Shown here: one piece after another, positions 6,863 to 50,428 of the stretch
How the letters are laid out: every line of letters starts with the position of its first letter
How positions within the stretch are numbered: the stretch's first letter is position 1
Origin: Podarcis cretensis
Taxonomy: Eukaryota
NCBI GenBank assembly: GCA_951804945.1
Contig: OX638154.1
Span: 60,078,001-60,142,000 of the forward strand
DNA: 64,000 nucleotides
Reading direction: 5' to 3'
Position numbers and translations under genes: made by a program
The notes under the pieces: generated by a model
The model's input: the letters and a program-made list of their open reading frames with translations, nothing else
What the model was told of the DNA's origin: nothing
Database searches by the model: none

Positions 6863-7221
6863 AGGTAAAGGTAAAGGTACCCCTGCCCGTACGGGCCAGT
6901 CTTGACAGACTCTGGGGTTGTGCGCCCATCTCACTTAAGAGGCCAGGGCCAGCGCTGTCCGGAGACACTTCCGGGTCACGTGGCCAGCGTGACATCGCTG
7001 CTCTGGCAAGCCAGAGCCGCACACGGAAACGCCGTTTACCTTCCCGCTGGTAAGCGGTCCCTATTTATCTACTTGCACCCGGAGGTGCTTTTGAACTGCT
7101 AGGTTGGCAGGCGCTGGGACCGAGCAGCGGGGGCGCACCCCGCCGCAGGGATTCGAACCGCCGACCTTTTGATCGGCAAGCCCTAGGCGCTGAGGCTTTA
7201 ACCCACAGCACCACCTGCGTC
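6863..7221 (-). mobile_element. Near full-length Sauria SINE
   Basis: Minus strand has a tRNA-like head with A box (TGGTGCTGTGG) and B box (GGTTCGAATCC), a Sauria body and an (ACCTTT)n tail. TSD CACTTTTATA at 6853-6862 recurs at 7226-7235 and 7300-7309. Confidence 0.93.
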
Positions 7222-9469: not shown

Positions 9470-9626
9470 TCACAGAATCATAGAACTGTAGAGTTGGAAG
9501 GGACCCTGAGGATCATCTAGCCCAACCCCCTGCAATGCAGGAATATGCAGCTACTCCATACAGGAATCGAACCTGCAACCTTGGTGTTATCAGCACCATG
9601 GTCTAACCAACTGAGCTATCCAAGTC
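9470..9626 (-). mobile_element. tRNA-Ile-headed SINE with CR1-derived 3' tail (Squam3-like)
   Basis: Minus strand GGATAGCTCAGTTGGTTAGACCATGGTGCTGATAACACCAAGGTTGCAGGTTCGATTCC resembles tRNA-Ile. The tail is ...CTAGATGATCCTCAGGGTCCCTTCCAACTCTACAGTTCTATGATTCTGTGA. Confidence 0.85.
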
Positions 9627-9930
9627 GTGGGTTTTTTGTTTTTGTTTTTTTGCAGAATTAAACTAGGAAAGCAGAGCTATGTATTGAGAAATATATGAAA
9701 AATTAATTTTGGCTCTTTGGGTTTTGCTGTACTAGATGTCCTGCCACTGGTACTACTTGCAGTCATCCGTGGGCTCCTGCTGACACATCTGATCTATCAG
9801 CAATGGGCTGATGTCCTAATGGTTGGTACATAAAGCACTTGCAGCAACGCCCTGCTGTTAGTGCTTGCAGCTATTTTAATGCTAGTGCCTGTGCATCTGT
9901 GTGTGTTGAATTCACAGCATAGATCCACAT

Positions 9931-10131
9931 TTGGGTTGCCATATTTCAAAAAGTGAAAATCTGGAGACAAAGGTTTGGGGAAATCACAGTTTTTAAAGAA
10001 AATCAGTAAAAATGACACTACCGACATGGATTGCCAAATGTCTGATTTTTCTGGGATATTTTGCCAATTTTTGAGCGGACACTGCAGTATTCTGGGTATG
10101 TCCAGAAAATTCTGGATGTATGGCAACCCTA
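9931..10131. mobile_element. Non-autonomous DNA transposon (probably hAT-type MITE)
   Basis: TIRs GGGTTGCCATA...TATGGCAACCC; TSD not clear. Confidence 0.65.
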
Positions 10132-11194
10132 ACATTCCAGATCAGAATCTGGTAGCACCTTATGGACAAATAAATGTATGGGGCATAGATTTTCATGGAC
10201 ATGAGTTTTCATCAGATGCATCAGATTTACTTCACAGAGATAGGGATCATTCTGATCATGTGATAGTAGTTCATCAGGTATATGGCAGCAGTGCAGGCAC
10301 CTAACAGGAGGGGGTCCTGGGAAGGGATGGAGGTGTTTGATTTGGGTTTTAATGTGAACCTTCCCATTGGTGGCTGCTGCCCACTGGAACTGGTAGGGAT
10401 GCCAGTCACAGGTGGAGTCAGAGTCAATGATAGGTGGAGCCAACTGATTCTGGTTTTGTCCCCATCCTCCTCCCTGTTGAGATTTATCCCACAAAAATGT
10501 GGAGAATGGAATTTAAGAATGGAAAAATGAGAAATGGAGAGAAATCAAAATTGGCAGATTCTTCCAATTCTTCCTTTTGAGGGCAGATTCAGAGCTTTGT
10601 ATCCCAGACCTAAGACAGCCCTCCTTCAAGCTGCTTTGGGTTTCACTCAAAGAAGTAATATGCAACACCGTGAGATCTAGTCTTTTCAGATATCATCAGA
10701 AATGGTTCCATCTGAAAGACTTTTAAGCTTGAGACTTGGCCTGCAACAGAAACTTTATGTGCACCTTTGATATATTGCAAATGGTTTCTGAGCTTTGCAG
10801 ATGTGTCTTATAATTTTATGCTATCCTTCAAACAATTTTATGGGTGAATTTTACATGCTATTATGCCGTATTGCCTTCTTAAAAGTTGTGCTGGCTGGGT
10901 GAATTGGACTGTTTTTATTTCCATCTGCCCTCAAAAGGTGTAAGTCACATTCTGTAAAAAAACACACACCAGTATCTGCCTCAATCTCTTGAGGTATCAC
11001 AAAATAAAAAGCCTCCCAAGCTCAGAGCTAATATAATTTGCAAGTCAGGTGCAGATAAATCATCCCAAACATCCTATGCTATAATATTTCCTACTCCTTC
11101 CCCCAAGCAGTGGAAAAGTTCGTGGCAGTCTTTGCAAGGTCAATATCCTCTGCAGAGAAATTGCCAGATAGGATTTTGTGTTAAGTGCAGGGAG

Positions 11195-11850
11195 CAAATG
11201 GGCAATGAAAATGGTCAGTGGTAGGGAAAGCAAGCCCTATGAGGAAAATTTGAAGTAACTAGGTATGTCTAGCCAGGAGGAGAGGAAACTAAGGCCACAT
11301 TCACACCTTATGTTTAAAGCTCTATGATACCACTTTGAACAGTCATGGCTTCCCTCCAAAGAATCCTGGGAACTGTAGTTTGTTAAGGGTGCTGAGAGTT
11401 GTTAGGAGACCCCTCCCAGAGCTTCAGTTCTCAGAGGTGTTAACAATCCATTCCTTTTCCCAGGGAACTCTGGGAATTGTAGCTCTGGAAGGGGAATAGG
11501 GGTCTTCCAACAACGTTCAGCACCCTTAAACTACAGCTCCCAGGTTTCTTTGAGGGAAACTATGACTGTTTAGAGTGGTATAATAGAGCTTTAAATGAAT
11601 GTGGCCTGAAGGGGGACCCCAACAGGCCTGCAGGGCTAACACATAGAAGAGGGTGATTATTATTTATTGTCCTTCTGCCCCAAAGCGAAGGACTGGGCCT
11701 TAAAGGCTTAAATTCGAGGAGGGTGCATCTTGAGTTGAACATTTGGGGAGGGACTATTGATGCTAAGAGCACTTTGATAATAGAAACAACTACCAATGGG
11801 GGGTCTTATTGCTGGGCTTTTTGAGCAGGGATGCTCTAGCTCCTCACCCT
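11195..11850 (+). mobile_element. Degraded CR1 LINE 3' fragment interrupted by the MITE at 11293-11606 (ends approximate)
   Basis: AAGCCCTATGAGGAAAATTTGAAGTAACTAGGTATGTCTAGCCAGGAGGAGAGGAAACTAAG resumes after the MITE as AGGGGGAC...GGCTTAAATT...GTTGAACATT, typical of the CR1 ORF2 end. Confidence 0.6.
11293..11606. mobile_element. Palindromic MITE, PIF/Harbinger-like
   Basis: TIRs GGCCACATTCA...TGAATGTGGCC, long internal inverted symmetry, flanked by TAA/TGA. Confidence 0.75.
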
Positions 11851-11987
11851 CCATGATTTTATATGCTGGTAAGGTGAACATTGACCAGCATCCCACACAG
11901 ATCTGTGTGTTGGTTCTAAAAGAAAACCAGTGCTCACCCCAGATCTAAAAGCACAGAACCCATCAGTCTGCCCTCACACAATCTCAC

Positions 11988-12250
11988 TGTTAAGTTGTGG
12001 GTGAACATATCAGACGACACAGCGATTCTTCAACAGCTCTTGTTTATTCACAGGCCAGAACAGAACTGAACTGAAGGGTTCAGCCAGCCTGCTTATATAG
12101 AGCTCCACTACAACGCAACAGTAACAACTTTCTGTAACTATCCAATCACTGAATGTCACTTTCAATCCCTTATTTGCATATGTGGACCTGAGTGAAAACT
12201 ATCTACAGTATCCCCCTGCTGGCCCAGGGTGTGAACTTCAGTATATAACA
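11988..12250 (-). mobile_element. Solo LTR, 263 bp
   Basis: Termini TGTTA...TAACA with 5-bp TSD CTCAC (11983-11987, 12251-12255). On the minus strand the octamer, CCAAT element, TATA (12093-12100) and AATAAA (12043-12048) occur in U3-R order. Confidence 0.85.
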
Positions 12251-14377
12251 CTCACCTTCCATCATTTATGCAGCCAGAGGAGCCAACCTCACTTTGCTTT
12301 CTACCTCCTGTTCTGGATGTGACTTTCAGCGAAGCCCTCTGCCTTCCCACTGCACCTCTGCACTTTTCACTGTACTGTGGACTGTTTCAAAACACCCTGT
12401 GCTAGAGAGCAGGTCATTGTGCCTGACCTCTATGTGGGATTCAGTCCTACCGCATACAAACGTGCAGCAGAATTCCCTGAAATAAATCCTCTGCTGTGTC
12501 TCCCTGCAAGAGTCACTGCTCTAGACTTGTCTCTTTCCTGTCACGCCCATGGTCCTTACATTTCCAGGCTCTAAAGTTTGTCTCCAGTCTTTGTTGAGGG
12601 GAAAAAAAAAGTGTGCTGAACCTGGAAGCTGCATTTTGTAACACAATCTCCTATATTTATAAACTGGAGGCAGTACAGTAATTCATGCCCCTGTGCTAGG
12701 AGCTAGCCTAGAATGGATGTTGACTCTTCCATTCTAACTCTACCATTTCAAAATGGAAGTGGACACTGATCCAGGCCATTGACAATTCCATTGCCTTACA
12801 CCATCCAGTTGTCTTCTCAAATAAAGCATTGCTTTCCTACTGAGTCAGGAAGAAGCCTTTGGGAGCTTTTGGGCCATCTTGACTTGTTTGCGTGAGTTCA
12901 CAGCACAAGACTCTCCCCACCCCACCCCCTTGTAAATTGGGAGAGTGCCAAGTTTTCATTAAACCTCTTATAAACTCAGAGCTCCTGCGAGGCTCCATAT
13001 GGCAAAGAAGCCATCTGTGATTCGTATAGTCTTGCTCCAACAAAACGACAACAGTGTGAAAAACTCTTTTCTCTGGTTGGCAGTGAACTGTAAAAGTAAT
13101 GTTAGTAATAGCTTCTGCAGGCTCGGGAATGACATAATTGACATTGGCTTATGGCACGAGCATTAGCTGCAAACTCTTGCCAAAAGTTCTGGATTGATTA
13201 ATATCTTCATTTAAAAGCGTAGATCGTAATGGTCAAGGGCCTTCTTAGCGTTAGCTTTCTTTTGGAGCAAGGGAATTCTAGGTTGCTGTAGATGGACAGT
13301 GTCTTTAAAAAAAAAATCATTCTATTTGTTCCCCATATTGCTGATCTCTTGCACTGCAAGAACCCATTTGCTTTATCCATAAACAGGGCTTGTGTTTCTA
13401 ATTGTTTTGGAACCTTATTGCCAGACCCACCTCTCAGTCGTATCTGTAGCACTTGACCCAATGTCTGCTGTTTAATACAGAGCTGTAGCAAAAAATAATA
13501 ATACTGGGCCTGGAGCCATGTCCACATATGTTTCTTGGATGTCTGATATTTTCATTTTGCTTCAGATGCCCTGAACTTGGAGGAGTGTCCATTTATAGCA
13601 TCCATGATCTTTCCAGAGGGCTGTGCTTTCACCCTCATCCCATCTTTTCTCCCCTCCAACCAACTCTGCAAATGCAGAGCTCAGAAGCAGAGACCTACAT
13701 TTAATTTTAACAAATGAGTAAGGGAGACTGATCTCTTAAAAAATATTCATGCTTGGAGGCAGGAAAGATGGAGAAGGGAGGGAGGGGGAGGGAGAAACAG
13801 AGAGAGAGAGAGATCCTTTCCCAATCCCTTTGAATTTGAAAGTTTGAGGTCTTTGTTTTTTAGAATTTCTTGCTGTGCAATTTAAATATCTCAATGGGAC
13901 CATAGAGCATGGAAAGGCTGCCTGCTTACTGAAGCAAATGTTTAGAAAAACAACACCTAAGAACAGCAAGGCTTCCTTTCCCACCTCTCCTAGTCTACTG
14001 TTTTTATAGATAGGCTGAGCTGAACTGCAGAAGCATTTCATAGTTTGTTTAGATAAGTAAGTGGCAAAACAAATTGGACCAGCTCCTAGAGGCTTTACAC
14101 ATGTTTTGGCCTTTTTCTCTCCCCCCCCCTTCTTTTTCTTTTTTTTAAACCCAGATGTCACCAGGAATTTCCCCAAAGAAATGGAAAGAGTAAAAGCAAG
14201 TGTGACATTGGAATAAAGGCTGACAGGTTTCCATTTAGGGGCAGTTTGCATGTTGCCCTAGAAAGTGACTCCTCAACTTGGGCTTCTTTCTACAGCAAAG
14301 TGGATTTGTTTTCCTGACCAGTATGTATGTTTTGATCCACCGGATCTGATTGGCTGCTTTACTTTGGCTCGTTTATA

Positions 14378-14579
14378 CAGTGGTACCTTGGGTTACAGAC
14401 GCTTCAGGTTACAGACTCTGCTATCCCAGAAATAGTACCCCGGGTTAAGAACTTTGCTTCAGGATGAGAACAGAAATCGTGTGGCGGCGGCGCAGCGGGA
14501 GGCCCCATTAGCTAAAGTGGTACTTCAGGTTAAGAATGGACCTCCAGAATGAATTAAGTTCTTAACCGAAGTACCACTG
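14378..14579. mobile_element. Tc1/mariner (Tigger/pogo-like) MITE
   Basis: TA|CAGTGGTAC...GTACCACTG|TA: TIRs with a TA target duplication. Confidence 0.88.
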
Positions 14580-14999
14580 TACTCATTTACAAAATTGTAG
14601 TGACTTTAGTTGCCGTGAAATCACGTAGGAACTCACGAGATTGTAAGTCATTCATGACGCTGAGAATTCAGTTAACTACCCTTAACTAGAATTTCCAGGA
14701 TACCCTGGAGAGGAGTTGTGAGTTTTTTGAAACTGGTTTACATATATGGCTTTGACCCTGATCTCAGTTTATGGTGCACCGTAATGAGTGTGATATGAAC
14801 TAAAATGTATGCGTTGCTGGGAGACTTTTCTCCCCTTGCTACATGAGTCATCCAGAGTGTTCTGCTCATGGATTCTGTGATTTCAGCACACAAAAGATGA
14901 ATCTGTTGTTCTCAATAGCATGCATAGGATATCTGCTGTGCAAACATATTCTTTAAATTCATTTGTTCTTTGGTATTTTTCCTCAATAGCCCAGTTGAG

Positions 15000-15790
15000 T
15001 TTGGAGAACCAGGCTGTACTTGATTTTTCTTTTCTTATGTTTGGGGTATCAGAACTTCCAGGTTAGATAAGTATGGTCATTAGTGGACTTGTTGTAAAGA
15101 TCTGTGCTCCATGAATATAAGAACATCAAGCAAAGAGATGTGTGGATTTTCAATGGTGCTACTGAATGTAAGCTTGATTGGGGAATGAATAACGTTGATG
15201 AAATATTTAAATTGATCTAAGCTGCCTTTCTCATCTGGANNNNNNNNNNNNNNNNNNNNNNNNNNNNNNNNNNNNNNNNNNNNNNNNNNNNNNNNNNNNN
15301 NNNNNNNNNNNNNNNNNNNNNNNNNNNNNNNNNNNNNNNNNNNNNNNNNNNNNNNNNNNNNNNNNNNNNNNNNNNNNNNNNAAACAGGTATTGGCATGTG
15401 GTTGTTAAGTATGCCATTAACAAGAAAAATATGTCCATTGATATAAGGTTTCCACGTTTTTGGTGGCTGTAGAAGATTTCTGTTGTAGAAGTCTATATTA
15501 TCTTTGGAGTCATCAAGGAAAAAAACCCCTGTATCTCTTTTCAAATGTATCAATGCCATTTTTCATTTGTGCTATATTGTATTCTCCTGGTGCTGGGTAG
15601 AAGGTGAATCCTTGAATGGTAGCATAATTTTACTCTGTGGTATTTTGCCCACAGTAAGTAAAATCTATTACTGTTTTGGAGTTATGCCTGTTATATCAGA
15701 TAACCTTCTTAAGAATGTTGATTATTTCAGGGTAAATCTTTTGAAAGTTCTGTTTTCAGTTTTGTTTATTGCTATCCCTACTTCTTAATG
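15000..15790 (-). mobile_element. Penelope-like retroelement RT remnant (ends approximate)
   Basis: Translation FKYFINVIHSPIKLTFSS...ISLLDVLI resembles the Penelope RT C-terminal motif (LNxxHPxIKFT...xxFLD). Spans an assembly gap. Confidence 0.5.
15240..15381. other. Assembly gap (N run)
   Basis: Run of N. Confidence 1.
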
Positions 15791-15849
15791 TAGAGTTAAT
15801 AATGGGGGGAAACAGCATTTTGCCTTCTCTACATGTCTTAAAATCAGCG

Positions 15850-16345
15850 TCCATTTTCCTGATGATAAGCATGACAGAGAATAACGAGCAGTTCCCTTGG
15901 AAAATGAGCTATTTCATTTTAGGGCATTGAAACGTTTTTGTTACTGGGTACTGAAATAAACAGGAAGTTCACATTGAGACTTTTGTGTGGGTTTCTAATA
16001 GCAAAACCTTTTGGTCAGCTTTTCATGGGCAGCGGCTCCCAGGGATGACACAGATTACATTTCAGCTTGTCTGTGTCTTTATTTCTCTCTCTCTTTGTCT
16101 CTGCAGGATAACTACAGTTTTGCTGAAGAACAATAAATGAAGGGTGAAAATTGCCAAACCACAGACACTTATCTGCTTACATTTTCTGTTTTAGCTGCTA
16201 TTGGGATCAGAATACAAAGTAACCTAACTCTTATGTCATTACTGTTGTCACATCTTATTACGGCGCTGAAGATGGTGGTAGCTTTTTGGCTTTCTGCTCG
16301 GGAAGTTGATGCTTGAGAGCTCCTGACGTAGCCCCAGATAAGTTA
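15850..16345. promoter_or_regulatory. Candidate endothelial-type enhancer
   Basis: FOX:ETS composite TAAACAGGAAGT at 15957-15968; GATA sites at 15863-15868, 16169-16174 and 16336-16341; no recognisable repeat. Confidence 0.35.
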
Positions 16346-16504
16346 ACACACAAAGCACGTTGGCCAGTAGACCGACTTCACTAGTGAAGAACATTCAGAA
16401 TGTTTTGGGTTCCACAGAGATCTTGCTGTTTCAAATTGCAAGGATAATGCAGGGATAAATGTGCACAGTCGTGTTGACTTTCTATTAGCATGGTAGTCCT
16501 GGTC

Positions 16505-16646
16505 CATAGAATCATAGAATTGTAAAGTTGGAAGGAACCTTGAGGATCATCTAGTTCAACCCCCTGCAATGCAGGAATATGCAGGGATCAAACCTGCAAA
16601 CTTGGCATTATCAGCACCATGCTCTAATCAACTGATCTATCCAGGC
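16505..16646 (-). mobile_element. tRNA-Ile-headed SINE with CR1-derived tail, second copy
   Basis: Aligns with 9470-9626 apart from a short internal deletion; ends in (ATTCTATG)n. Confidence 0.85.
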
Positions 16647-18148
16647 TATGTGAGCATGGTATGAGTGTTTTGAAACATGGTAGGCATGTCCTATTTCATT
16701 GCAATCTGGTTCAGCCCAGAGAGTTTCCAGTGTAAGCTAATGCATGTGCTAGGAGCTCTGGGGTGTCTGCTTCGTAACATCAAAACAAAAGGAACACAGC
16801 GAGAGCCCTGGAGTTGCTTGGCAAGGCCAGGAGTTGGCTGGTTACATCCAGGATGGGGTCAGCTAGACTTTTTTACACATTCAGCATTCACAAGAGCACC
16901 TCTTCTCCTCCAATTGAGCCTGTGAACTTGCCCTGACTCTGGCTCCAGTCAGTTCTTAGAACACACAACAATAATTATACACAGTAGGTGAAATTTCAGT
17001 CTGTCTCTGGGTTTCTGTAAACGTAGCAGTGGTAACTTTATGTGCTTACACATTGGTCTTCCTGGAAACTAGGCTAGCTAGTTAAAAAAAATGAGGAAAA
17101 CAGAGATGACTCTTAAGAATGAACACTGAATCCTTCCCAGGTTTTGATTCTGGATTGATGTTTTACTAGCTTTGATCCATTGTCTGTGTGGAAATATCCA
17201 GTGATGTAAGGCAGTAGCCCAATTCTGATTCTGCAGCAAGCCTTGTTTGCACCAAGCTGCTGTCGCAGGGGTCTGAGCACCATTGCAAATGTACAGTTAG
17301 AAAATACTGGAGAAAGAACAAATACCAGAGAGAGAAATAAAAGTGGCAGAAGAAGGAAAAAAAGAGAAATGAAGAGCGAAAGAAGAAAGCTCGGTGGGAG
17401 AGCCTGTCAAAATAGAAGGCTTTTATATATTTTTTATTCTTTTCCATTTATGCTTCTAGATGTTCACACATTATATTTTGCCAGATTTTTCTTGGCCTCT
17501 CTTAACTCAGGTGCAACTTTATGCTGGTGGCCATCTCAACCCTTTGATGCTGCTCCACCATAAACAGCCAAGCGCTGCCAGAAGTGGCCAGACACCCCGT
17601 GCCCTTTCCCTCAGGGTGTTACCTAGAGGTGTGGGAGAAGTGAGATTTCTTTAGCCATGGCAAGGGCTCAGGAATAGTGCCACAACTTGAGAGGGGGATT
17701 ATTCTCATTCCTTTGCAGAGGGGAAGGGAGGGAAGGCGGATGGTGCACAAAGTGTAGCTACTACTTTTCTATGGAGCGGTTGTTTTGAAATTCCTGGAAG
17801 GTTATGTAAATAATTCTTTCTTTTTTTTTAAGCATGCTGTAATCCTTGGGAAGGAGAAGGGAATCAACACCAAGATTTGTGCAGTGGATGTTCCTACTTT
17901 GCTCCTAATTTGATACTTTCTCACTGGAGATATCAAGCGAAAACACCTCTCTCATTTCAATATTCTTCTTCAGTTTATTGGCATACATTCAACTCATCAC
18001 TGCCTCCAAGCACTGGTCTAATGCCTCAAATGCCTCCTCTGGTTCAGTTGGAACAGAGAAATAGCGTTGGGAGTCATCTGCACATTTATTAATTTATTTT
18101 GTAACATTTAAACACCACTTGATTGTAAAAAAAAAATCCCTCAAAGCG

Positions 18149-18150
<2 letters not shown>

Positions 18151-18183
<33 letters not shown>
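18151..18183. repeat. (AC)n microsatellite
   Basis: Direct reading. Confidence 0.95.
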
Positions 18184-18184
<1 letters not shown>

Positions 18185-18302
18185 TTTCAATAAAGAAGAA
18201 CATAACTTCTAAACTTACTTGAAACAAAAAAATAGTACTCAACACCATTACAAATATTGATGACACTTCACTTCAGATCTCCTGATGACAGCTCCCAGAG
18301 GT

Positions 18303-18630
18303 TCATGTAAATGTTAAATACCATTGGGGGGCCAAGATGGAACCCTGCAGGACACTGAAGGACAACTCCCCTGGTGCTGAACAATGCCCACCCATGACTC
18401 CTTTCTGGAAATGGCCCTTAAGGTAGAAGCAGAAGCCCTCAAACAAGGTGCCCCCAACCTCCACCTCGCTAAGATGCTCCAGAAGGATACTGTGGTCAGC
18501 AGTATCAAAAGCTATCGAGAGACTGAGGAGATTCACTCCTCCCATCTGTCTCCTGATAAATGTCATTAGCAAGGCAGTTTCAGCGCAATGACTAGGCCAG
18601 AAGTTAGGCTGGAATGGATTCGAGTAACCC
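18303..18630 (-). mobile_element. L2-clade LINE RT fragment
   Basis: LLSLSIAFDTADHSILLEHL...VLQGSILAP resembles LLDLSAAFDTIDH...GVPQGSILSP. Confidence 0.8.
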
Positions 18631-21066
18631 CACCCTCCTCCCTTTCACTGCAATTTATTTTGTTTGTTTGTTTCATGACATTTGCAAACCACTTGATTCT
18701 AATAAAATGGCAAAAGAATTAATGGCATTATCGTTAAAAGTAAGTATTTAAAACTCTAACAAAATAATTAAAACAAACAATTAGCTGTGTCAATATCTCT
18801 GCCACGTACACATCAGGTGCCTCCCTATACACATCCTTGTCAGTTATCAGGAGCAACCCTGTCTTCTTTTCTTCCAAGAGTATCTCTATTAGCGACTACA
18901 GGAAAGGACCATCCAGTTATGGACCCCTCCAGGCACCTCTGGGTTTTTTGCTCTCATTTGAAAACTCAACCCACCCACCCCCCTGCCAATCATTGCTAGT
19001 TTTATAGTGGAGTAGTGAAAAGGCATTAGTTTCTGTTTAAGCCTCTAGGGGTTTTGCCTTTTTTATTATCACTGAACAAGGCACATTACTCTCGAACCAA
19101 CTTAATGGTGGAGAATTAATTAGCGCGAGACACGGTTTGATAGCTGTGGTCTCTCCACAGCCGTGATGAGACAGAGGCCAAGTTGACTCCAGCACCACTT
19201 TGAGCTATTTCCTTCTGGGAATGTTTCAATGGAGCCAAACGTTTAGGCCTAGAAGCCATTACCAGTCTACCTCCTATGGCTTGCCTGAGCACAGTGCCAG
19301 CCAATTAGTGAAACTAGAGAATTAAATAAACCATCCACCTGCTACAAGGTCATTCTCTTGGCCTTCTTCTTTCCAGAGTACTACCCTGCAAAATCCCCAA
19401 CAAGCTTCCAAGTCTAGCTCTGGCAGGTGTATAAACCTGAAAATTCAACATGTTGGCTAGAAAGTATGAGCAATAAAAGGTGTAGGACCATTATGTCTGC
19501 TTCTCAAGTACCCAGGAAAATAACTGACTGCGACAAATGCTTGTGGTGGCAAACAGCATGTAGAGACATTTGGAAGGAGGAAATCATTCTAAGAAATTAA
19601 AGAGCTATTCATCAACCTGCTTTCAAAAGAGGAATCCTATCTTTCCTATCTACCTTAATTAAAACTACATTAGGTGCATTATAAAATCTTCAGCTTGGAC
19701 TCCTAGAATTGCAGAGTGCCATGACACTAGCAGGACACCGAGGAAGGGGAAGAGGATCCTGGCCAGGGGTGTAGCCACCATATACCAGGGCAAGCTGAAG
19801 ATGGGGAAGGGGAGGTTGGGGACTTAGGAGGTACTCATGGGGCATCAGAGGATGGTGAAGGGGCAGCTGACAGTTCACACAAGCCTGGAGGGAGGGATGC
19901 ATCACCAGAAGTGCCCCCATCTCTTCAGACACAGCAGAGCATCAGGAACAGCAGGAAGTGCCCTCTAAGAGACTTAGGCAGGTAAGGGAATGCAGCCCAG
20001 CTCACTAGTTGTCTAGGAGGAGATCATGAGGTTTGTTAGGTCTTGGAGGAGGTTTGTGGTCATGCAGCTGGATTGGGCCCTCAAGTGGAGAGACACAGCT
20101 GCTCAGCTGGAGCAAATCCAGATGTGTCAATCAAGACTGAAAGGGATAAGAGGGATAAAAGGCAGAGGCTCTGTGTCTGCTCAACTTTCTCTGTTGATGC
20201 ATCACGGCTTGGCTGCTTTGGGGACTCCATTAGGCTGCGACCTTAGGGCTGACCTCAGGTGTTCTGATCCTGGATCTATTGCAAAGGTGAGAGCCTGTTC
20301 TTACTGTTTGACTTCAGACTTTGCTTGTTGTATTGGACCTGGGTCGGTATTTGACCTCTTGGACTGTCTGACTACTCTCTGGTGTTGTTCTTGGGACTGT
20401 GTGCACCAGCAGGACTTGCCTCCAGGTATACTGGGGTTCAGGACATAGAGTTGGAATTTGAATACCTGACCTTGCTTAGCTTTGCATATGCATTAGCAGG
20501 GTTTTCTTTTCCTGCACCACTTGGGGATTACAATACAAGTGTTGATGTACACACTATAGCTTTAAAGCACATTTCCCCTCCTCAAAGAATTCTGAGCACT
20601 GTAGGTTGCTGGGAACTGTAACTTTGTGAGGGATAGACCACAGTGGCCAGAATTCTTATAATCTTATTATATACTAAGATATAATATGCTTTCAATGCCA
20701 GGCTTAGGCTCTGCCCCTGTTATTGGTAACTCTGCAAAAGACAAGTATGGATCCTTGCTCATGCGGACATTACATTAGTATGCATGTATAGTGTGGGAGG
20801 GGAATTTGTGGCCCTCCAGACACTGCTGCACTCCAACTCCCATCAGCTCCAACCAGTCAGTTCAACAACATCTGGGGGACCACAAATTCCCCTCCCACCC
20901 CTTTCCTTCTACAGTTTGTATGCATGTTGTAGGTACCAAAGACCTAGCTAATGCATATCCTCCCAGATCTATCTATATTATTATTATACTTATTATCCAT
21001 CACATTTTTGTACCCAAATGCCTCAAAGCAACGTACACAGAAAAACATAAATAATGGAAATATTAA

Positions 21067-21110
<44 letters not shown>

Positions 21111-21115
21111 TAATA
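21067..21115. repeat. (AAT)n microsatellite
   Basis: Direct reading. Similar tracts at about 22167-22208 and 49121-49163. Confidence 0.95.
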
Positions 21116-22070
21116 AACAAAAAATAAAATACCCATCTGACAACATATTTAAAAGGAACATAGTGGCACTAAACCATAATCCTTCTGCACTGGTGAAGGA
21201 TTGGGAGAAAACAAACCATCCAGCCATGTAGAAAAATACTACTTGGCAATGTATCCCTTCCTCTAAATCTGGTCAGAAATAGTCATCTGCTTAAGAACGT
21301 GAAGTGTTCAGAATATGAATAATGTTCCGAGTGAAGTCTTGGATGCTGCCATCTGAGTTTTGAACAGCTATTTTGTTTTGGGATGTGTGTTTTTTTTCAA
21401 AAGGGGGGGGGGGAGAGGACAAGGGTTTTTCTTGTATTCAGAGCCAGAAGCTGCAACTTCATGTGCAGAAAACACACCTGCTTACCATTTTAATGAATTC
21501 GAAAATCTTCAGATTCCCATACAGTTAATTGTTCATGCAAAGAAAGGCTGTTTTGTCTTCCCATGGTCAAGAAAATGAAATGCAGGATTTAGGTCAATTT
21601 GCTAAATGAAACTATGTGAAAAGCATACCCGAAGCAGAGGTATTTAATTAGTTTCATTAATATGCATGGAATTCTCTGGAAGTCTCTTGGAGCTGAATCT
21701 ACTCTCGGGCAGACAGACTTTGGCAACAGGGTGGATCATCCCAGTGAGCTGGACAGCTCCATTGGTGAGGAAGGCCATGTCATCTTCCTGCCTTGCTTGC
21801 AATGCATCCTTTTCAGACATTACTTTCTTTTTATTTATTTATGCACACTTGAAACCATGTATTTTTACAGCAGTTTACACTTATTTTCAGCTAAGTCAGA
21901 GAAGTAATGCTGCATGTCCGCCAGCTGTTATTGTTATTTCTTAAACAAACAAAGTGATTGGGAAACGGAGGTGAGCTGAATTTAAGACTGGGAAAATTGG
22001 AAGCTGAAATTGACAGATTTGCCTGTTCCTTGTATCCTAGTGTCACTTGTTCCACACACAGAAGCTCTTC

Positions 22071-22123
22071 TTTTTTAAAAAAAAATAAATAATATTTATT
22101 GAAGTTTCAACTTCAACTTTGAA
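22071..22123 (-). mobile_element. Extremely 5'-truncated L1-type tail insertion, 53 bp
   Basis: Perfect 18-bp direct repeats CACACACAGAAGCTCTTC (22053-22070, 22124-22141). The insert has AATAAA plus an A-rich end on the minus strand. Confidence 0.75.
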
Positions 22124-22165
22124 CACACACAGAAGCTCTTCAGGATCATTATTAGGTGCAACCCT

Positions 22166-22209
<44 letters not shown>

Positions 22210-22827
22210 TGTCTGTCACATAGTTGGGACCCCCACTTTTCATCACAACTTATAGTCCAAAATGTAGCAATTGCCAAATCAGGTATTTCCTAATTAATGT
22301 GTAGAACAAGCAGCAAAGCAGCCCTGAGATACAGCACGCCAAAACAAAAGCATGGACATTAGCCACAGACCTCTAATAATGCAGGCCACTGCGGTTCAGC
22401 TTAAGATTTGAACAAGCTGCCTTCCCTTGTACTTAGGAATTCTGGAGTGAACCTGAGTAACCTGGCTCTGATTCTGAGAACGTAATGTTTTTCTGTGTAT
22501 AACAAACATGGTGTTGAGCTAAACTGTTTTGTCTTGCACTTTGGGAAAGCTCTGGCCTGCACTGTATCCTCCCTTTTAACAGCTTGTTTCCCCATTAAAC
22601 CTATTTTCAGGCATTGGCAAAAGACACGGTGCTGTAAACGGCAGTGCGTATCTGCCTTCTGCTGCAAGGCTGCCAATGTCCTCAGTGCTGGGGTGGGGGA
22701 ATCGCAGTAGAAATGCACCATATTTACAGGAAGGGTCCTGTAAATGTTTCAAATGTGTATGATTAACATGTATTAATTTTCATGCCATTTTTGTGATTAC
22801 AGCTTGTGCTGGTTGACCTATTGCTTT

Positions 22828-22966
22828 TAGAATCATGGAACTGTAGAATTTGAAGGGACCATGGGGGTCATCTAGTTCAACCCCCTGTAATGCATGAGGT
22901 TTTTTTGCCCAATGTGGGGCTCAAACCCACGACCCTGAGATTAAAAGTGTCATGGCCTTCCAACTG
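22828..22966 (-). mobile_element. tRNA-Lys-headed SINE with the same CR1-derived tail
   Basis: Plus strand TGCCCAATGTGGGGCTCAAACCCACGACCCTGAGATTAAAAGTGTCATG matches the reverse complement of vertebrate tRNA-Lys(CTT). The tail matches 9470-9540. Confidence 0.8.
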
Positions 22967-23065
22967 TTGAATCTGAACACTTTGAGTGTTCGCAGAAAGC
23001 CAAAAGCTGATTCATGGGGCACTTCCAGGTGACCTGCTAATTGAGCATCCATCCTGATTAGTTTG

Positions 23066-23183
23066 TTTGGTTTTTTAAAATTGCTTTTTATTAAATTTTT
23101 CACAAACAAAACCAAAACAAGACAAAACAATCTTTTACAGTCATCATTTTATGTCATCTTATTTACACTGCATATATTCATGC
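23066..23183 (-). mobile_element. Short L1-type 3' tail insertion, 118 bp
   Basis: Perfect 17-bp direct repeats CCATCCTGATTAGTTTG (23049-23065, 23184-23200). AATAAA and an A-rich end on the minus strand. Confidence 0.75.
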
Positions 23184-26100
23184 CCATCCTGATTAGTTTG
23201 CAGGGATCTTAGACAACACTGACTCTTTAATAAGCACGCAATTCTGATTTGTTAGATGACATTGCATCAAAACAAGCGTTATCCCATACTTTCCACTACA
23301 TTTTCTCATCACTTTCCTTATTGGAAAAGTCTGATCTTTTGGGAAGCGGGTTTCTTGTGCAAGACCTTCAAGTAGGCTGTAATTGTCCAGCCTGAATTTG
23401 CCAGTATGCGATTGAATCACGCCTGAAAAGAGCAACAGTCTGCAAGTACCGCAGAAGGTTGATGCTGAACAGGCTAACCACATGCCAAGAACAAGACCTT
23501 TCAGTAGTTCTTTAAAGAATGTGGCAATTTTTTCTCTGTCATTCCTGCCTGATATGCTGCATCACCTGTGCAAATCTCCTCCTGGGAAAGGGACAAAACC
23601 CCTGTATTCTGCTGCCACTGGTAATATGGTGTGGGTGTGAGACGCTCCCTCATCCCATACTTGCCTAATATTATTTTTAACTTTTATGGCAAACTCCATT
23701 TTCCTGAGAAGCACTTCAGCAGAGCTTGTAACGTATAATCCTCCCTTTCTTTGTGTTGGCTGTGGGAGTTCACATCCTCTGCCTCTTCCTTCTCACACGG
23801 CTGTTCCCTGAGAAGGCAAGGCATACGAAAATAACATTAAAATGAGAGGACAAAGAATTCTTCAAGTCTTGTTTAAAAAAGAAAAATCAGCATTCGGGGG
23901 AGGGGGGAGAGCTACAATGCAAAGCCAGTAAATGAAGGAAAGTAAATTTTGCCAAGCTTCAGGAAAGAAGAAAGTAAAGGTCTGATCATATACTCACATT
24001 CTTGAGAATTTTGCATCTACCAGATCTAGCACAGCCTTGGCTAATCTGGGGCTTTCCAGTTGTCTTGGATTACAATTCCCACTCCCCCAGTCACCATAGA
24101 TGTGGTGACTGAGGCTGATAGGAGTTATAGTTCCAAAGATCTAGAGGGCATCAGGTTGATGATGGCTGACCTAGCAGTTCGGTGTCTATCATTTCTGTTA
24201 CTCCTACTAAACTATTCTACCTCCAGCTTCTTCTTGGCTGGCACACGAAAGGCAACCTGAAGCCAAACACACATTAAAAACTAGCATATTCCCTTCAAAA
24301 TCTGCTGCTATTTGACATGTTGGTACTGTCTCTCTTTTCTCTTCATCCGCTGCCTCTATTCTCTGCTGTACAGTGGTAAGCTGGTTCATCCCTCTGTTTT
24401 GAATCATAAACAGTCAAAGCTGTGGCTTTGGGGAGGGATTCACACATGCCGTTTTGCCCCTGTGATTGAGGGGGGCCCAGGGGGTCCCAACATCAGAATG
24501 CCCCATGGCATGCTGCATGACATCAGCATGCCCCATGACATTCGTGTGTGGCCACTGTGGGACTTTGAGGGGCAGCCCTTTCATTGGAAATATTGGGGGC
24601 CCTGCCCCCCCCACTTGACACCCTTGGAGAGATTACTGTTTTTCTTTTCCACCATTGTATAGAACATTTGATATCAATATCAGGCACTGTTATCCCATCA
24701 CATGTGCAAAAGTATAAGCTGCTTCCTGAGCCTGCTAATTCCGCTAGCTTCCTTGCATGCTCCACTATGAAATTTCAAGTGCCTGATCTTTCCCTTTTCA
24801 AATTACAGAGGTACACTGTGGTGTCCTAGACAGGAGCTTCAGTCTTTTTCGATTCAGTGAAGCACACCAAGCTCTAGGTGAATTCACCTGGTCTGGATAA
24901 TATTGGTTCTGTGCAGAAAACTCCAAGCATGAAGGCAGCTGGAGAGCTGCCCACTATCTAGCTCCTGATGTTCATGGTGAGGTAGCCTTTTTTTCCTTCA
25001 GTTGTTGTCAAAGAGCAGCTCAAGAACCACTGAGCAGGAGACATCTAGGCAGGATGCATACCACCCCCTGAAAGAATAACGGAAACTGACAATTACCCCT
25101 CACAAAGCTACAATTCTCAGCACCCTCAACAGAGTTCACAGAATTTTTTGGGTGGGTGTGATTTTAAATTCATGGTGTGTACACCTCTCTCCCCTTGGTT
25201 CTGCTGTCTTATTATATTGTTACAGATTTGGGGTACCAGAGTTTGTGGGTGCAAAAGCACCCATAATTGGAGTATGTCAATGTTAGGAATTACTAAATGC
25301 TTGGAGTCTTCACTTGGGAAAGAGACAGCTTTGTAGTGTAAAAAATGCAGGTTAAGCTTGTCTCCCAGACCAGGGCATCACCTGGGGGATATGACAAAGG
25401 TGTTGATGATGACCCATCAAAGGAAGATGTTTGAGTCTGTGAATCAAAAAAAATGTTGTCCTGTTAAAAAACAAAGGTCTGGAGCTGGGAGGGCATGTGA
25501 TCGGATAGAAGGGGGGGTTGTGTTTGGCAAGGCATTCTGGGAACAAGAAGGAGGAATGTGGCACTGGTGGGAGGAGGCTGCACCGACAGAGCAGGGGCCA
25601 TGACTGGCTGCTGCTGTGGACCCCAGCTTGCTGAAACTATGAGAGGAGCAACTTTTTGTGAAAATGTGCTGGCATGTAGGACTACAATTGTTTCACACAA
25701 GACTGGAAAAGCTTCCTAGAAACAACTCAGAATGAATACTCAGCTGGTGTCATCCAATCCACAAATTTTGTACAAACAAGTGTTCCATAAATAGGTATTT
25801 TGGGAGTGGACTATTGCAGTTTCATTTGCCCTCCCCAGCCCTCTTCTTACTTTGCCTGGCCCACAGTGACCACAGGGGAAAAGCTACCCACCCTCACTGG
25901 TATCACTGACTCCTCATTCACAGAATTCCCAGTTGCCTCCAAGTTCTCTCTTGTAGCTTCCCAAGAGACTGCCACCCAAAGGTCATGTGCAAATTGATTC
26001 AGAGGTAGAGAAATATAAGTTCAGCAGCTTGAACTGTGTGTGTCTTTAAGAAAGTCATACACTGTCTACGAGTTCTCTTGAGTTTTATCAGAAACAAGCT

Positions 26101-28369
26101 CTCTCTTTCCTGGCCATAATCAGACCCATCAGGCAAGGGTGGAGCTTTCGGTTCAGAGCCAGCCATGGTATATAAATCACCTTGTGCTAAAACTTAGAAA
26201 CTCTTGCTAGGCTCCAGGAGTTCTTTTGCTGTTTTTGCTAGAGCTTCTTGTCAGAACAACCTGCTGCCCTTGATCCAGTGCTGCTTCTGCCTGTCCAGAT
26301 GAAAACCACGACACACCCTTTCAGCTTGCGGCAAATTGTACTTGTGTATTTGCTAGGGCAAGCAACCTAGGGAAGCTCATTATTCCAGGTCCCTTTTATC
26401 CCTCTATTTTGTCATTAATTCTGGTACAATTATATGCTCACTGCAAATACTAAACCACTTAACGGAAGCAAACTGTTCATTGAGAAACAGCAACTAGGAA
26501 GAGAAAATTTGCTACATTACCAAAACGTCAGAAATATGAGCGCATTCAACTACAAATTGCTGAAAAAAATGGATCCCGTCAACTTAACCGTCCACTGTTT
26601 TCCAGGGGAGTTGGAATTCCATGAGGAGTTCAAAAGAGGCCTAGGAATGGTGTAATTATGGAAAGAATTCTACTTCATGCTTTTACCCATATGTGCGTGA
26701 GCCAAGTTTTCTATTGTTTTCTACTTCGTTTTGAGAACTGCGCTCCTCCCAAGGCAATTAAAAGTGCAAATCTGTTATTCGTTAATGCGTCCTAAGGGCT
26801 GAGAGTTTAAACATGCAGCAAATTGAAAACTTAAAAAGCTGTGGTTCTCATTAACTTTGCCACGTTATACATTCTATATTAAGGCCTTCAAAATTAACAC
26901 CATCTACAGGCCCCCAAACACAAAAATCCCAAACGCTATCTGGGTACACACAGAGTGTCGGCGATGGTTGTGGAAATAACAGGGCTTGATTTAATTCCAC
27001 ACTGCTACGTAACTTTTCCAGAATGTTGGTGTTGAGATATACAGGCTAAGCAATAGTCAAGTAGGCAAGCAGCTGGGCCTGTGATTGCTTTTCTGACAGA
27101 GTGACACATAGTCTGGGCAGACATCAGGCCTTGCACAAAAGTAACCATTGGATGTTAAGTTGCTGGTGGTGCTGGTGGGCAGTCCAAGGGACTTACTGAG
27201 AGATAGGAAAGAGAATTAATTGCCCATAGCTACTCAGCCCTTATGTGCTGGAGTTATCAGAGTAGCCCTGTATCCTGTCTAGATGCAGCACTTTATGAGA
27301 TGTAGACCCACCCCTAAAACTAGCTTTTTCTCTATCCTGAACCACCAGGCATCATGCAGGACAGAGCAGGAGCCTGAACATTACAGTTAGAATTTGCTGA
27401 GTTAAGGGAATTTACTGAACCAGGCTGCTTTCAGGCAGTCACTTTTTTTGTGGGAAGGATTCAAACGCACACTGGAAATTTAGGTTTGCCCAACTGAAGT
27501 GGATTAATGTTCTCTGCAACAAAGCCATTACAAAAAAACAAAAGGAAACCCCCTGACTTTTTGCTGTTAAGAAAGTGATGGGGAAATGTGCTGAGAAGTA
27601 TGAGGTGAATGAATGGTTAACAGAAAGATGTGTAAACACCCCACAAGCAAATCTGGATGAATTCTCATTGCATGACCAGGCGGCAACAGCCCCAGCCCCC
27701 ATAAGGTAGGAATAAAGACTCTGACATCTTTATATAGAATTAAAATTAGGCTACGAGTTTATAAAACTTCCAAATGTAGGAAGGCTTAGGCCTTGGGTGT
27801 GTATCCCTCCCAGCCCCCAGCTGGGGGGAACTGGGGCTCATCAGGGTAAATGGGAAATGGGGGTGCTCTGCGAGGTGTAAGTGTAGCAGGCAGCCAAGCC
27901 CATATCCCCGCACGCAAGGTAGTTCATTGACAACCTTTCAGTGTATGGCCAGTGACACCCATATATATAACCCCTTTAAGAGGGGGACCCTGGTATCGCT
28001 GCCACAGGAGGATGAGACACCACTTCACGGCCCCCCTCCCCATATAGGGAAGAAAAGACTAAAGGATTCCATCCAAGGCCAAAACCGCCACCTGAGACCA
28101 CCAACTCGTGGTGTTGTGGCCTCACCCCCTATTGATAAATAGGGCTGACCCCACCTCCCAGCAAGAAACTTCCAAATATTACAGCCCCTGTTTGCCAGTA
28201 AGCTCCCTGGGGACTGTAGCACCACGCACGATCCTGCAAAGGGCACCCACAATGTAAAGTGTGAGTGTTCATTGTTGTATAACTCCCTGTAAACAAATCA
28301 GAATGAATGCTTAATACTACGCACATAGTAACCACAATGTAAGCTTTGTACAAGCAAAGTAAGATGGAC

Positions 28370-28526
28370 GAATCACAGAATTGTAGAGTTGAAAGAGGTT
28401 CCCCAAGGGTCATCTAGTCCAAACCCCTGAAATGCAGGAATCCTGCCCACAGCCATCCCTGCGTGGGCTTGAACCACCAACCTTCTGGTTAACAGTCAGA
28501 CAAATTGATCCATTGTGCCGCAGAGA
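28370..28526 (-). mobile_element. tRNA-Asn-headed SINE with the same CR1-derived tail
   Basis: Plus strand CATCCCTGCGTGGGCTTGAACCACCAACCTTCTGGTTAACAGTC...ATTGTGCCGCAGAGA matches the reverse complement of tRNA-Asn(GTT). The tail matches 9470-9540. Confidence 0.8.
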
Positions 28527-39613: not shown

Positions 39614-39893
39614 AAAAAGGTAAAGGTACCCCTGCCCGTACGGGCCAGTCTTGACAGACTCTAGGGTTGTGCGCTCATCTCACTCTATAGGCCGGGAGCC
39701 AGCGCTGTCCGCAGACACTTCCGGGTCACGTGGCCAGCGTGACAAGCTGCATCTGGTGAGCCAGCGCAGCACACGGAACGCCGTTTACCTTCCCGCTAGG
39801 AAGCGGTCCCTATTTATCTACTTGCACCCGGGGGTGCTTTCGAACTGCTAGGTTGGCAGGCGCAGGGACCGAGCGACGGGAGCGCACCCCGCC
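39614..39893 (-). mobile_element. 5'-truncated Sauria SINE inside the PLPP3 3' UTR
   Basis: Closely similar to the copy at 6863-7221, with an (ACCTTT)n tail. Perfect 14-bp TSD GAAAGTGAGGGATA at 39600-39613 and 39894-39907. The tRNA head is missing. Confidence 0.92.
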
Positions 39894-40367
39894 GAAAGTG
39901 AGGGATAGGTGAAAACAAATATGGAATGACTCTTTACAACCAGGGATACTGGTGAAGCAGGCTGGGTTGCATTTAGAAAGTGGATTCTACACCTAACTGG
40001 AAATAGAAAAATACTGTCTTGCAGAATTGTGTAGTGGAAATAGGCACTTTTCTAACATTTTACTGGGTATACATCTCCAAAACCAAAAGTAAGTTCCGAA
40101 TTGGAATGGAGATAAAGAAAACCAATAAAATAAGAGGTTACACTTAGAAAGTGATCACAAATCATGAATCAGTGCTTATTTTTCATAGATAGTGCTATAA
40201 TCTAGTTGGCAAGGATTTTTCTCTCCCCTCTCTCACTTAATAGGAATTGAAAACTGTCATGGCAAATAAAAGAAGCAGAAGCAGAGATGGCCAGTTTCCT
40301 AGAAATCATTTAGTGTTCATTAAGCTATGAACAATTCAGCATTCACTACAACATGAACACTCAGCCA

Positions 40368-47083: not shown

Positions 47084-47237
47084 GAATGGTGTGCTTTCTT
47101 TATCAAATTTTAACACACTATTTATAATTGTATGAACCTTTCTTATGTCTTTTCTTGATCATTTTTTCTACCTGATAAGAAAGGTTTATACAATTATAAA
47201 TAGTGTGTTTAAAATTGATAAAGAAAACACACCATTC
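47084..47237. repeat. Inverted repeat, 63-bp arms, 28-nt spacer, in PLPP3 intron
   Basis: Arms 47084-47146 and 47175-47237 are complementary at 59 of 63 positions by manual comparison. Confidence 0.92.
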
Positions 47238-49422: not shown

Positions 49423-50292
49423 CATGTCATGAAGTTTACACAAGTAAACTCATGCTACCAGTACCAGCTGTGTGAAGGCATCTTTGTTACTTCATAGTAC
49501 TGCTCTGGGGAGATTTTGCGTTGTTTGAAAACACTTTGGAAAGATGGAGAGGCTACTGGATAATCTGTTTGGGGTGGGAGAAGATGTGGTCAACCACACA
49601 CACTTCCCTCATAAGCGCTTGACAGGTAAGCACAACTGTAACCGTGACCCATATTCAAACTCTAAAGTGTTAGCTCTAAAGCTGTCAGGGTTGCCTAACC
49701 TATGTCAAATTTTGCTGTGGGGATGAGTAAGAACACACTGTAGAGTACACTGCTGATTGAGAAATGCTTATATTAATGATTAACAGTTTCTGAAGTACTG
49801 TAGGAAATTTTCAAATGAATGAGTACCTGCATCTGGCCTCATTTGAGCAGATGGGTTAGAGTCACACAAAAGAGTGTAAAGGGGGAAAATCATTCCCTTT
49901 TGTTGAGTCTGGGGCTTTGAAATCAGTCACTGATATTTATCTAATGACTAACAGATTGGCCATGATCCCACTGAAATAGAGTCAGAAGTTTGCTATTTGG
50001 CGTTCTTGCAGACATGAACTCCACTGTTCATCTGGCTGTTAGAGTAAGTATAGCACAGCCCTGGGAACTAAAACAAGTAGCATTTAAGGTGGCCACCTCA
50101 GGAGTTTATTTCCTAACCCCGCATGGCACAACGACATAAATGTCAGTGAAGTTATATAAGAAATTAATCCAGCAGCTGTTTTCAGATTTGGCTGGCACAA
50201 TGCAACACCCTGTGGGCAACATTACCTGGCTTACTCTAAGAACCCCTGGAGTCAGGACACATTTATTTAGAAAGCTAAATACTACCTAAAAT

Positions 50293-50428
50293 CAGGCTTC
50301 CTCAACCTCGGCCCTCCAGACATTTTTGGCCTACAACTCCCATGATCCCTAGCTAGCAGGACCAGCAGACAGGGATGATGGGAATTGTAGTCTCAAAACA
50401 TCTGGAGGGCCGAGGCTGAGGAAGCCTG
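50293..50428. mobile_element. hAT-type palindromic MITE
   Basis: CAGGCTTCCTCAACCTCGGCCCTCCAGA...TCTGGAGGGCCGAGGCTGAGGAAGCCTG; degenerate TSD acctaaaat/acctagat. Confidence 0.85.

Follow-up and report, generated by a model that had tools for sequence, protein, structure and literature searches.

CR1-tailed SINEs with tRNA heads are already known from birds, turtles and one lizard. The lizard is Podarcis sicula, for which Fantaccione (2004) reportedly describes, by its title, one CR1/SINE pair with a tRNA head; our guess from that title is that this SINE may be one of the families presented here, most likely that with the Lys or the Ile head. In passerine birds, TguSINE1 (tRNA-Ile) and PittSINE (tRNA-Asp) likewise join a tRNA head straight to a CR1 3' end that has a hairpin and an 8-base microsatellite, and the account in PMC5729268 places the two heads on one tail, proposes template switching between them and has the Ile head joined at the discriminator base, as it is here. 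According to the same account, the tails of the bird elements share four derived bases, in keeping with a head swap, the heads occur in different lineages and there are about 2,000 copies. In contrast, the lizard families combine four heads in one genome, have no derived tail base in common and reach up to tens of thousands of copies, and a source locus was found. The tortoise Pol III/SINE (PMC3747384), to go by its description, resembles our Lys family in having a tRNA-Lys head on a CR1-type tail (PsCR1) in a reptile, although it belongs to the turtle lineage and has one head. The squamate SINEs Squam1/Sauria, Squam2 and Squam3 are tRNA-related too, and are described as 190-350 bases long with a body (PMC10702118, PMC7983390, PMC3747384). 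Squam1 is paired there with Bov-B and Squam3 with L2, whereas the present families have no body and a CR1a tail directly behind the head; lacking the body and the Bov-B or L2 tail, they appear by sequence to lie outside Squam1 and Squam3. From Squam2 they are set apart by its description, with 147-163 bases and no body against 190-350 bases with one, and CR1 does not occur in PMC10702118. Finally, SINE3 with its 5S rRNA head and the chimeric SINEs of hagfish, as presented in PMC7245038, show that 5S-derived promoters, and heads from more than one class of RNA sharing a tail, have been described before; the fourth family below differs from these in that its 5S part is confined to bases 37-97, follows a short piece resembling tRNA-Ser and is joined to a CR1 tail. 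In the literature searched, we found no description of these families or of an Asn- or 5S-headed CR1 SINE in lizards. We suggest that four separate SINE families, all now decayed, arose on one CR1 3' UTR, each probably born when the CR1 reverse transcriptase (RT) left its CR1 RNA template and jumped to a Pol III transcript, at the transcript's 3' end.

The window studied here, a stretch of 64,000 nucleotides from Podarcis cretensis, had been annotated initially as holding four elements with one tail of CR1 origin behind two tRNA-Ile heads, one tRNA-Lys(CTT) head and one tRNA-Asn(GTT) head. All four were found at the positions given, on the minus strand of the window; a tail profile built from 109 seeds gave exactly four matches (E 4e-24 to 5e-17), and the heads kept their assignment when compared with the real tRNA genes of the same genome (1.51 Gb, 51 contigs searched). 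The first Ile copy consists of a tRNA-Ile-derived head with anticodon GAT and putative Pol III boxes A and B (9552..9622), a 7-base linker of the main-subfamily form (9545..9551) and a CR1a 3' UTR tail with a small and a large predicted hairpin and the 8-base microsatellite at its end (9470..9544); its head matches Ile at 57/74 bases, the runner-up reaching 47. The second (16505..16646) has a full 5' end and a 13-base internal deletion across head end and linker, and matches Ile at 55/74 against 51/71 for Lys-TTT. GAT was read in both, as annotated. The Lys(CTT) copy (22828..22966) is without the first 11 bases of its head, has an A-rich linker and the Lys-type base at tail position 37, and matches Lys-CTT at 56/73 (runner-up 49). 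The Asn copy has a head (28454..28526) derived from variant tRNA-Asn(GTT) genes with a CTGG/CCAG anticodon stem (60/74, against 56/74 for canonical Asn), a 19-base linker (28435..28453) that corresponds to the spacer between the Asn and Ser genes of the source tandem and the last 8 bases of which (28435-28442) are also CR1a sequence, and a CR1a 3' UTR tail (28370..28442). The 13-base deletion and the 11-base 5' loss had been missed, as had a fifth element on the minus strand (20444..20523), a decayed copy of the fourth family with a 5S-rRNA-type promoter head and a mostly deleted tail of which 11 end bases remain; its nhmmer score of 22 bits is weak on its own. The repeats at 6867 and 39616 in the window are presumably Sauria SINE-like.

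The CR1 origin of the tail could be narrowed down to the 3' UTR of one CR1-type LINE subfamily, CR1a, as the same 70 bases terminate many copies whose upstream part encodes the C-terminus of ORF2. The shared tail word begins 4 bases past the ORF2 stop codon and 43 bases past a T5 run, and the SINE junctions fall within about 10 bases of each other just past this stop codon. The genome contains two CR1 subfamilies, the old CR1a, which is 14% diverged and ends in the tail that the SINEs carry, and its sister CR1b with a different tail, on which no SINE heads were seen. Several CR1b copies are nearly identical to one another, a long one carries RVT_1 (RT) and endonuclease domains, and their protein identity to the CR1a end is 75-79%. 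Assignment to the CR1 clade is based on the 8-base microsatellite, which is the one given for amniote CR1 in the account of PMC5729268, and not on an RT tree. The two hairpins of the tail were predicted in the consensus and in 2/4 copies folded, at a stability not above that of shuffled sequences (z -1.5 to 0.1). Among headless CR1a copies, 16/61 have a 5' end that lies at most 12 bases from where the tail begins, compared to 7 in the next 33 bases, and several of these 16 are SINE stubs. Divergence from consensus in the census described below was 13.8% for Ile (n=3), 13.9% for Lys (n=8) and 14.4% for CR1a (n=10); on these small samples the Ile and Lys families are old, with copies about 14% from consensus, and their activity overlapped that of the partner CR1a.

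The Lys- and Asn-headed forms, which would have been refuted as families had they been single-copy chimeras, turned out in the genome searches to be families. A T-loop-plus-tail pattern had 3,609 exact matches genome-wide and none in the reversed control; sorting of the first 100 by eye gave 47 Ile, 45 Lys, 7 Asn and 1 other, and by this proportion about 250 of the exact matches would be Asn. With an Asn query, 40/40 of the best 40 of 1,463 candidates scored span most of the query, and 30/30 fetched loci have head, linker and tail start. A census of 73 stretches of 10 kb at round coordinates (730 kb) contained, with tail, 12 Lys, 6 Ile, 0 Asn, 13 CR1a, 9 CR1b and 9 unassigned elements, from which we estimate, roughly, 25,000 copies of the Lys(CTT) family (13,000-43,000) and 12,000 of the Ile family (4,500-27,000). 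For the Asn family the census sets a bound of under 7,600 and the 7% share suggests 2,000-3,000 copies, again roughly. Further tRNA heads were not seen: a pattern for other T-arms had 235 matches, of which the first 100 were by eye all Lys or Ile, in a search that heads with decayed T-loops would escape. The definition in SINEBase (PMC3531059) speaks of a short interspersed repeat of <1 kb, of 100 copies or more, and of an identity to tRNA or 5S rRNA that is no lower than 60% across 60 bases. The Ile, Lys and Asn families reach this number of copies. The consensus sequences run to 147-163 bases without a body, and copies lie across many contigs, which makes them short interspersed repeats in this sense. 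Consensus heads match their tRNA genes at 65/74 (Ile), 67/72 (Lys) and 67/74 (Asn), and all four heads appear from sequence comparison to reach the identity asked for. Moreover, the copies share changes absent from the cellular gene, which argues for SINE families and not RNA pseudogenes: G34 in Ile, A7 in 23/28 Lys copies, and G17, C21 and T24 in 31-32/32 Asn copies, most of the 32 having been chosen by head similarity and the same changes being present in most of 8 copies chosen otherwise. Candidate Pol III boxes are present and a T4 run is absent in every SINE consensus. Target site duplications gave a weak signal, with matches of at least 6 bases in 21/150 copies against 7.2% in mismatched pairs.

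The fourth family came to light because two unassigned tails had 64 upstream bases in common. When this sequence was used as a query, 27/30 fetched loci among the best 40 of 792 candidates scored have the CR1a tail start, while the 730-kb census contained no copy with tail and two head fragments. The head has 93 bases and, in an alignment above all 5,000 shuffles, agrees at 42/61 with bases 37-97 of the 5S gene from the same genome, a segment which we take to comprise box A, the intermediate element and box C. For the first third of the head, the best match was tRNA-Ser(GCT), at a score reached by 2/300 shuffles. Rfam and ARAGORN did not recognize the head; only the direct alignment to the genome's 5S gene matched.

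In the Ile family it is the anticodon that points to the origin of the head. The intact tRNA-Ile genes found all read AAT (9/9, with exact patterns by which divergent genes could be missed), and two GAT matches in that search were SINE copies. GAT had been taken as the trait of a shared master copy, and indeed G34 prevails in both Ile subfamilies, in 22/27 informative copies of the old and 47/58 of the main one. The old subfamily (34 of 67 pattern matches, with 7/34 rows removed for poor alignment) retains T7 (21/27), a CR1a-type tail and a linker that duplicates a tail word. The annotated lack of CCA at the head-tail joint is true of the consensus of all three families, but in the oldest Ile subfamily CC stands right after the discriminator base, as part of this duplicated word. 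In the old subfamily, which is the most gene-like, G34 is the sole non-CpG position below 70% gene identity, which fits reverse transcription of inosine-34. By a rough estimate, the chance that the first random non-CpG change falls on base 34 is 1-2%. Inosine editing reportedly takes place on tRNA precursors, to judge by the title of one study. Reverse transcriptases read inosine as G, and several G34 tRNA genes are absent from most eukaryotes, as stated in the account of PMC8072771. Editing of the early SINE's own RNA would give the same mark, and GAT would also result if a master copy in DNA had undergone one A-to-G point mutation. A convergent GAT was not seen in TguSINE1, in which AAT is mostly kept (54 vs 12 occurrences, which are not independent copies, in the supplement alignment of PMC5729268).

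Three other readings of the Ile head were tried and given up. A mixed A/G anticodon in old copies was a hint from 15 copies that was gone with 34 (Fisher p 0.74). The head is not a Lys/Ile mosaic from birth, since A7 is a later change absent from the old subfamily. The linker GCTG, read as a tRNA trailer or an overlap with CR1, matches its best cognate trailer at 4/4 bases (8 tries), but 2/65 control trailers equal this and the linker of the older subfamily differs. Similarly, the Lys linker as a tRNA trailer (5/7) is equalled by 4/67 controls, and the AA linker of the Lys SINE is without explanation in the model proposed below. At head position 7, both the main Ile and the Lys family have A where the parent genes have T and C; A7 breaks an acceptor-stem pair and, speculatively, may shield the RNA from tRNA processing.

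The Asn family is the one for which the source could be traced. Seven canonical Asn genes have the anticodon stem TTCGG/CCGAA, whereas eight variant genes with the stem of the SINE lie in one 20-kb cluster (C2:117.78-117.80 Mb). Behind 7/8 of these variant genes there is a Ser(GCT) gene or relic that scores above all 1,000 shuffles; behind the eighth, the Ser score was reached by 80/1,000 shuffles, but 13 of 14 bases at the corresponding offset agree with the beginning of Ser. No Ser(GCT) was found behind the canonical Asn genes tested (0/6). From all this, the Asn-spacer-Ser tandem is native and old. Two variant genes have G17 as in the SINE, without its C21 and T24, and their spacer, after a 13-base duplication, equals the SINE linker at 18/19 bases; a sister lineage matches 8/10 of the first linker bases, which 0/62 non-cognate trailers reach. 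The expectation that linkers correspond to the 3' flanks of tRNA genes was thus borne out for Asn and not for Ile and Lys, where the flanks did no better than control trailers. In its last 8 bases, GATTCCTG, the spacer does not differ from CR1a, and this word stops precisely at Ser +1. Of 68 trailers, 3 match the junction window over 8 bases, two of the three being those of the G17 Asn genes, and at the junction of the Asn SINE the overlap is present once. RNase P cuts at +1 of a tRNA, and like RNase Z it leaves a 3'-OH end. A co-transcribed precursor would therefore release an Asn RNA ending in GATTCCTG, and co-transcription of Asn and Ser is suggested by a spacer without a T-run, none of the variant Asn genes having one directly behind. 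No long upstream homology of the G17 genes to their cluster neighbours was found, and no CR1 tail remnant behind the Ser gene of their tandems, where scores were at shuffle level. The 13-base duplication could mark conversion of the G17 genes by an early SINE; this would cut the native overlap to about 5 bases and leave its position unchanged. CR1 fragments were observed within the cluster. In public sequencing runs 23/24 rows hold part of the Asn-Ser tandem (best share 0.52), which we did not count as evidence.

Two birth routes had been offered, insertion of the tail behind a tRNA gene and template switching, and the evidence leans to switching at the RNA level. In the model that we think likely, target-primed reverse transcription of CR1a RNA would halt near the tail start after the last 70-80 bases, and the CR1 RT would then continue on a Pol III RNA after a jump to its 3' end. 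For the Asn family the acceptor would be the upstream piece of the Asn-spacer-Ser precursor freed by RNase P, to which the cDNA could anneal since the last 8 bases of the piece equal the CR1 template; for the Ile family it would be tRNA-Ile(AAT) edited to inosine at position 34 and read as G by the RT. The chimera would owe its internal Pol III promoter to the head and its recognition and priming site for CR1 ORF2 to the tail, and would have been amplified in trans during CR1a activity. The junction window was likely bounded by hairpins and by the T5 run 43 bases upstream; fusions farther upstream would take in this run, which would stop Pol III, and the window would be limited on that side. 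Jumping of non-LTR RTs between templates in vitro, helped by short 3' overhangs, is described in PMC8857657, section 10 of which also holds that jumping is perhaps dispensable in vivo and that L1 chimeras arise via ligation. Rather more tentatively, the CR1 RT may sample processing intermediates of nuclear Pol III transcripts, the Asn family fixing an RNase P end and the Ile family fixing I34 as a DNA base. In the literature searched, no SINE was described as bearing a mark of RNase P or of inosine, and the Asn source locus with its junction did not appear there either.

The fusion could also have taken place in DNA, by insertion of a short, 5'-truncated CR1a behind a tRNA or 5S gene or by deletion or recombination through the 8-base match, with Pol III read-through making the first SINE RNA. 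Very short CR1a insertions are frequent (the 16/61 above), the variant Asn genes have no T-run directly behind them, the Asn SINE retains genomic spacer and CR1 fragments lie inside the Asn cluster, all as a fusion in DNA would have it. However, no tail remnant is left behind the G17 Asn-Ser tandems, the end of the match at Ser +1 would be a coincidence (we estimate roughly 1 in 12 placements), and G34 as the first non-CpG change would require a chance mutation or later editing of SINE RNA. We therefore consider this origin unlikely.

Whether there was one birth or several can be judged from the tail, for which copies picked with the Ile tail were excluded. Position 31 is T in Ile (15/20) and C in CR1a (29/32), Lys (24/35) and Asn (22/29), whereas position 37 is T in Lys (25/35) and G in CR1a (28/32), Asn (25/29) and Ile (16/20). 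Ile has T31 to itself, and a fixed A36, and Lys has T37 to itself; the Asn tail equals CR1a and the tails of the fourth family and the old Ile subfamily are of CR1a type. T37 was also seen in CR1b (6/8). Among the four families compared, no derived tail base relative to CR1a is common to two, and the signature of the bird head swap is absent, which fits four separate captures from the LINE better than head swapping. Repeated fusion of the tail to different RNA-gene heads, as annotated, is supported, and the 5S-type head adds a fourth instance. A single birth followed by head swaps, through template switching or recombination, has its precedent in the step proposed from TguSINE1 to PittSINE in PMC5729268, and it could draw on junctions within about 10 bases and on the A7 that the main Ile and Lys families share against their parent genes (T, C). 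The four diagnostic bases of the birds have no counterpart here, the old Ile subfamily has T in place of A7 (21/27) and the junction is different in each family; a swap before any tail change would leave no trace, and on balance we regard this history as decidedly improbable. Ligation of the head RNA to a CR1 3' fragment ahead of reverse transcription, although it has a precedent in U6/L1 chimeras (PMC6789731) and would equally lead one to expect RNA marks, G34 among them, and junctions where RNAs end, is very improbable, as it makes an overlap unnecessary, yet the Asn junction has 8 bases present once, and as RtcB is described there as requiring a 2',3'-cyclic phosphate, against the 3'-OH ends noted above for RNase P and RNase Z.

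If a repeat library lumps these families together or files them under CR1, some 40,000 elements would be miscounted. Scans for tRNAs, in turn, would report tRNA-Ile(GAT) genes that are not genuine, most eukaryotes being without this type. The acquisition of a tail by a SINE is usually argued from consensus sequences, the parent locus having been lost, while here the parent tandem of the Asn family survives. Its junction is readable to the base, and the three further births on the same tail are replicates; together, the surviving tandem and the replicate births make template jumping, DNA fusion and ligation testable against each other. If it is true that the CR1 RT samples Pol III intermediates, these lizard families would be a base-resolved record of the birth of SINEs.

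The source locus of the Asn SINE head is a cluster of variant tRNA genes, duplicated in tandem, in the genome under study (G000:C2:117.78-117.80 Mb, loci L222-L225). Here, the anticodon stem is altered in the Asn genes and the D-loop in the Glu and Val genes, and the cluster also includes an atypical Gly(CCC). The variant Asn genes are without a terminator and continue into Ser genes or their relics. Such an arrangement is, to our knowledge, rare in vertebrates. A head fragment of the fourth SINE family, which has a 5S-rRNA-type promoter head, follows a tRNA-Ile gene at a distance of about 70 bases (near G000:C13:46556000, L159/L235); this tRNA gene carries a one-base deletion. At G000:C5:95.68-95.75 Mb, 5S rDNA forms a tandem array whose repeat unit is about 570 bases long.

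Ile-type tail bases were present in three copies of CR1a, the old CR1 subfamily that donated the SINE tails (L016, L025 and L026). These are likely to be the result of chance or conversion, as the three copies were selected using the Ile tail as query and the Ile-type base at tail position 31 (T31) was otherwise rare in CR1a (1 of 32 further copies). Elsewhere, a truncated CR1a end was fused to a 35-base stretch (L078:1400-1500), which we presume to be 28S rRNA-like; an Rfam search of this stretch gave no match, and no second copy was detected among the fetched loci.

In the window, the four tRNA-headed elements all lie on the minus strand, as does the decayed copy of family 4 (9470-28526; 5/5); this could reflect an antisense bias within a plus-strand gene, or chance. 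A presumably Sauria SINE-like repeat also occurs twice in the window (6867-7145 and 39616-39894), the two sequences being about 93% alike, and in L154 and L161 similar copies were inserted adjoining tRNA genes. Several further short elements have long inverted arms (50292-50429, 20793-20898, 11313-11595 and 47084-47237) and are probably MITEs; weak miRNA-family matches were obtained for several of them.

The young CR1 subfamily CR1b differs in its tail and has copies that are nearly identical to one another (L064, L040, L057, L082, L093, L140, L387, L390). None of its nine copies in the census of 73 10-kb stretches carried a SINE head, and the SINEs may therefore have died together with CR1a.
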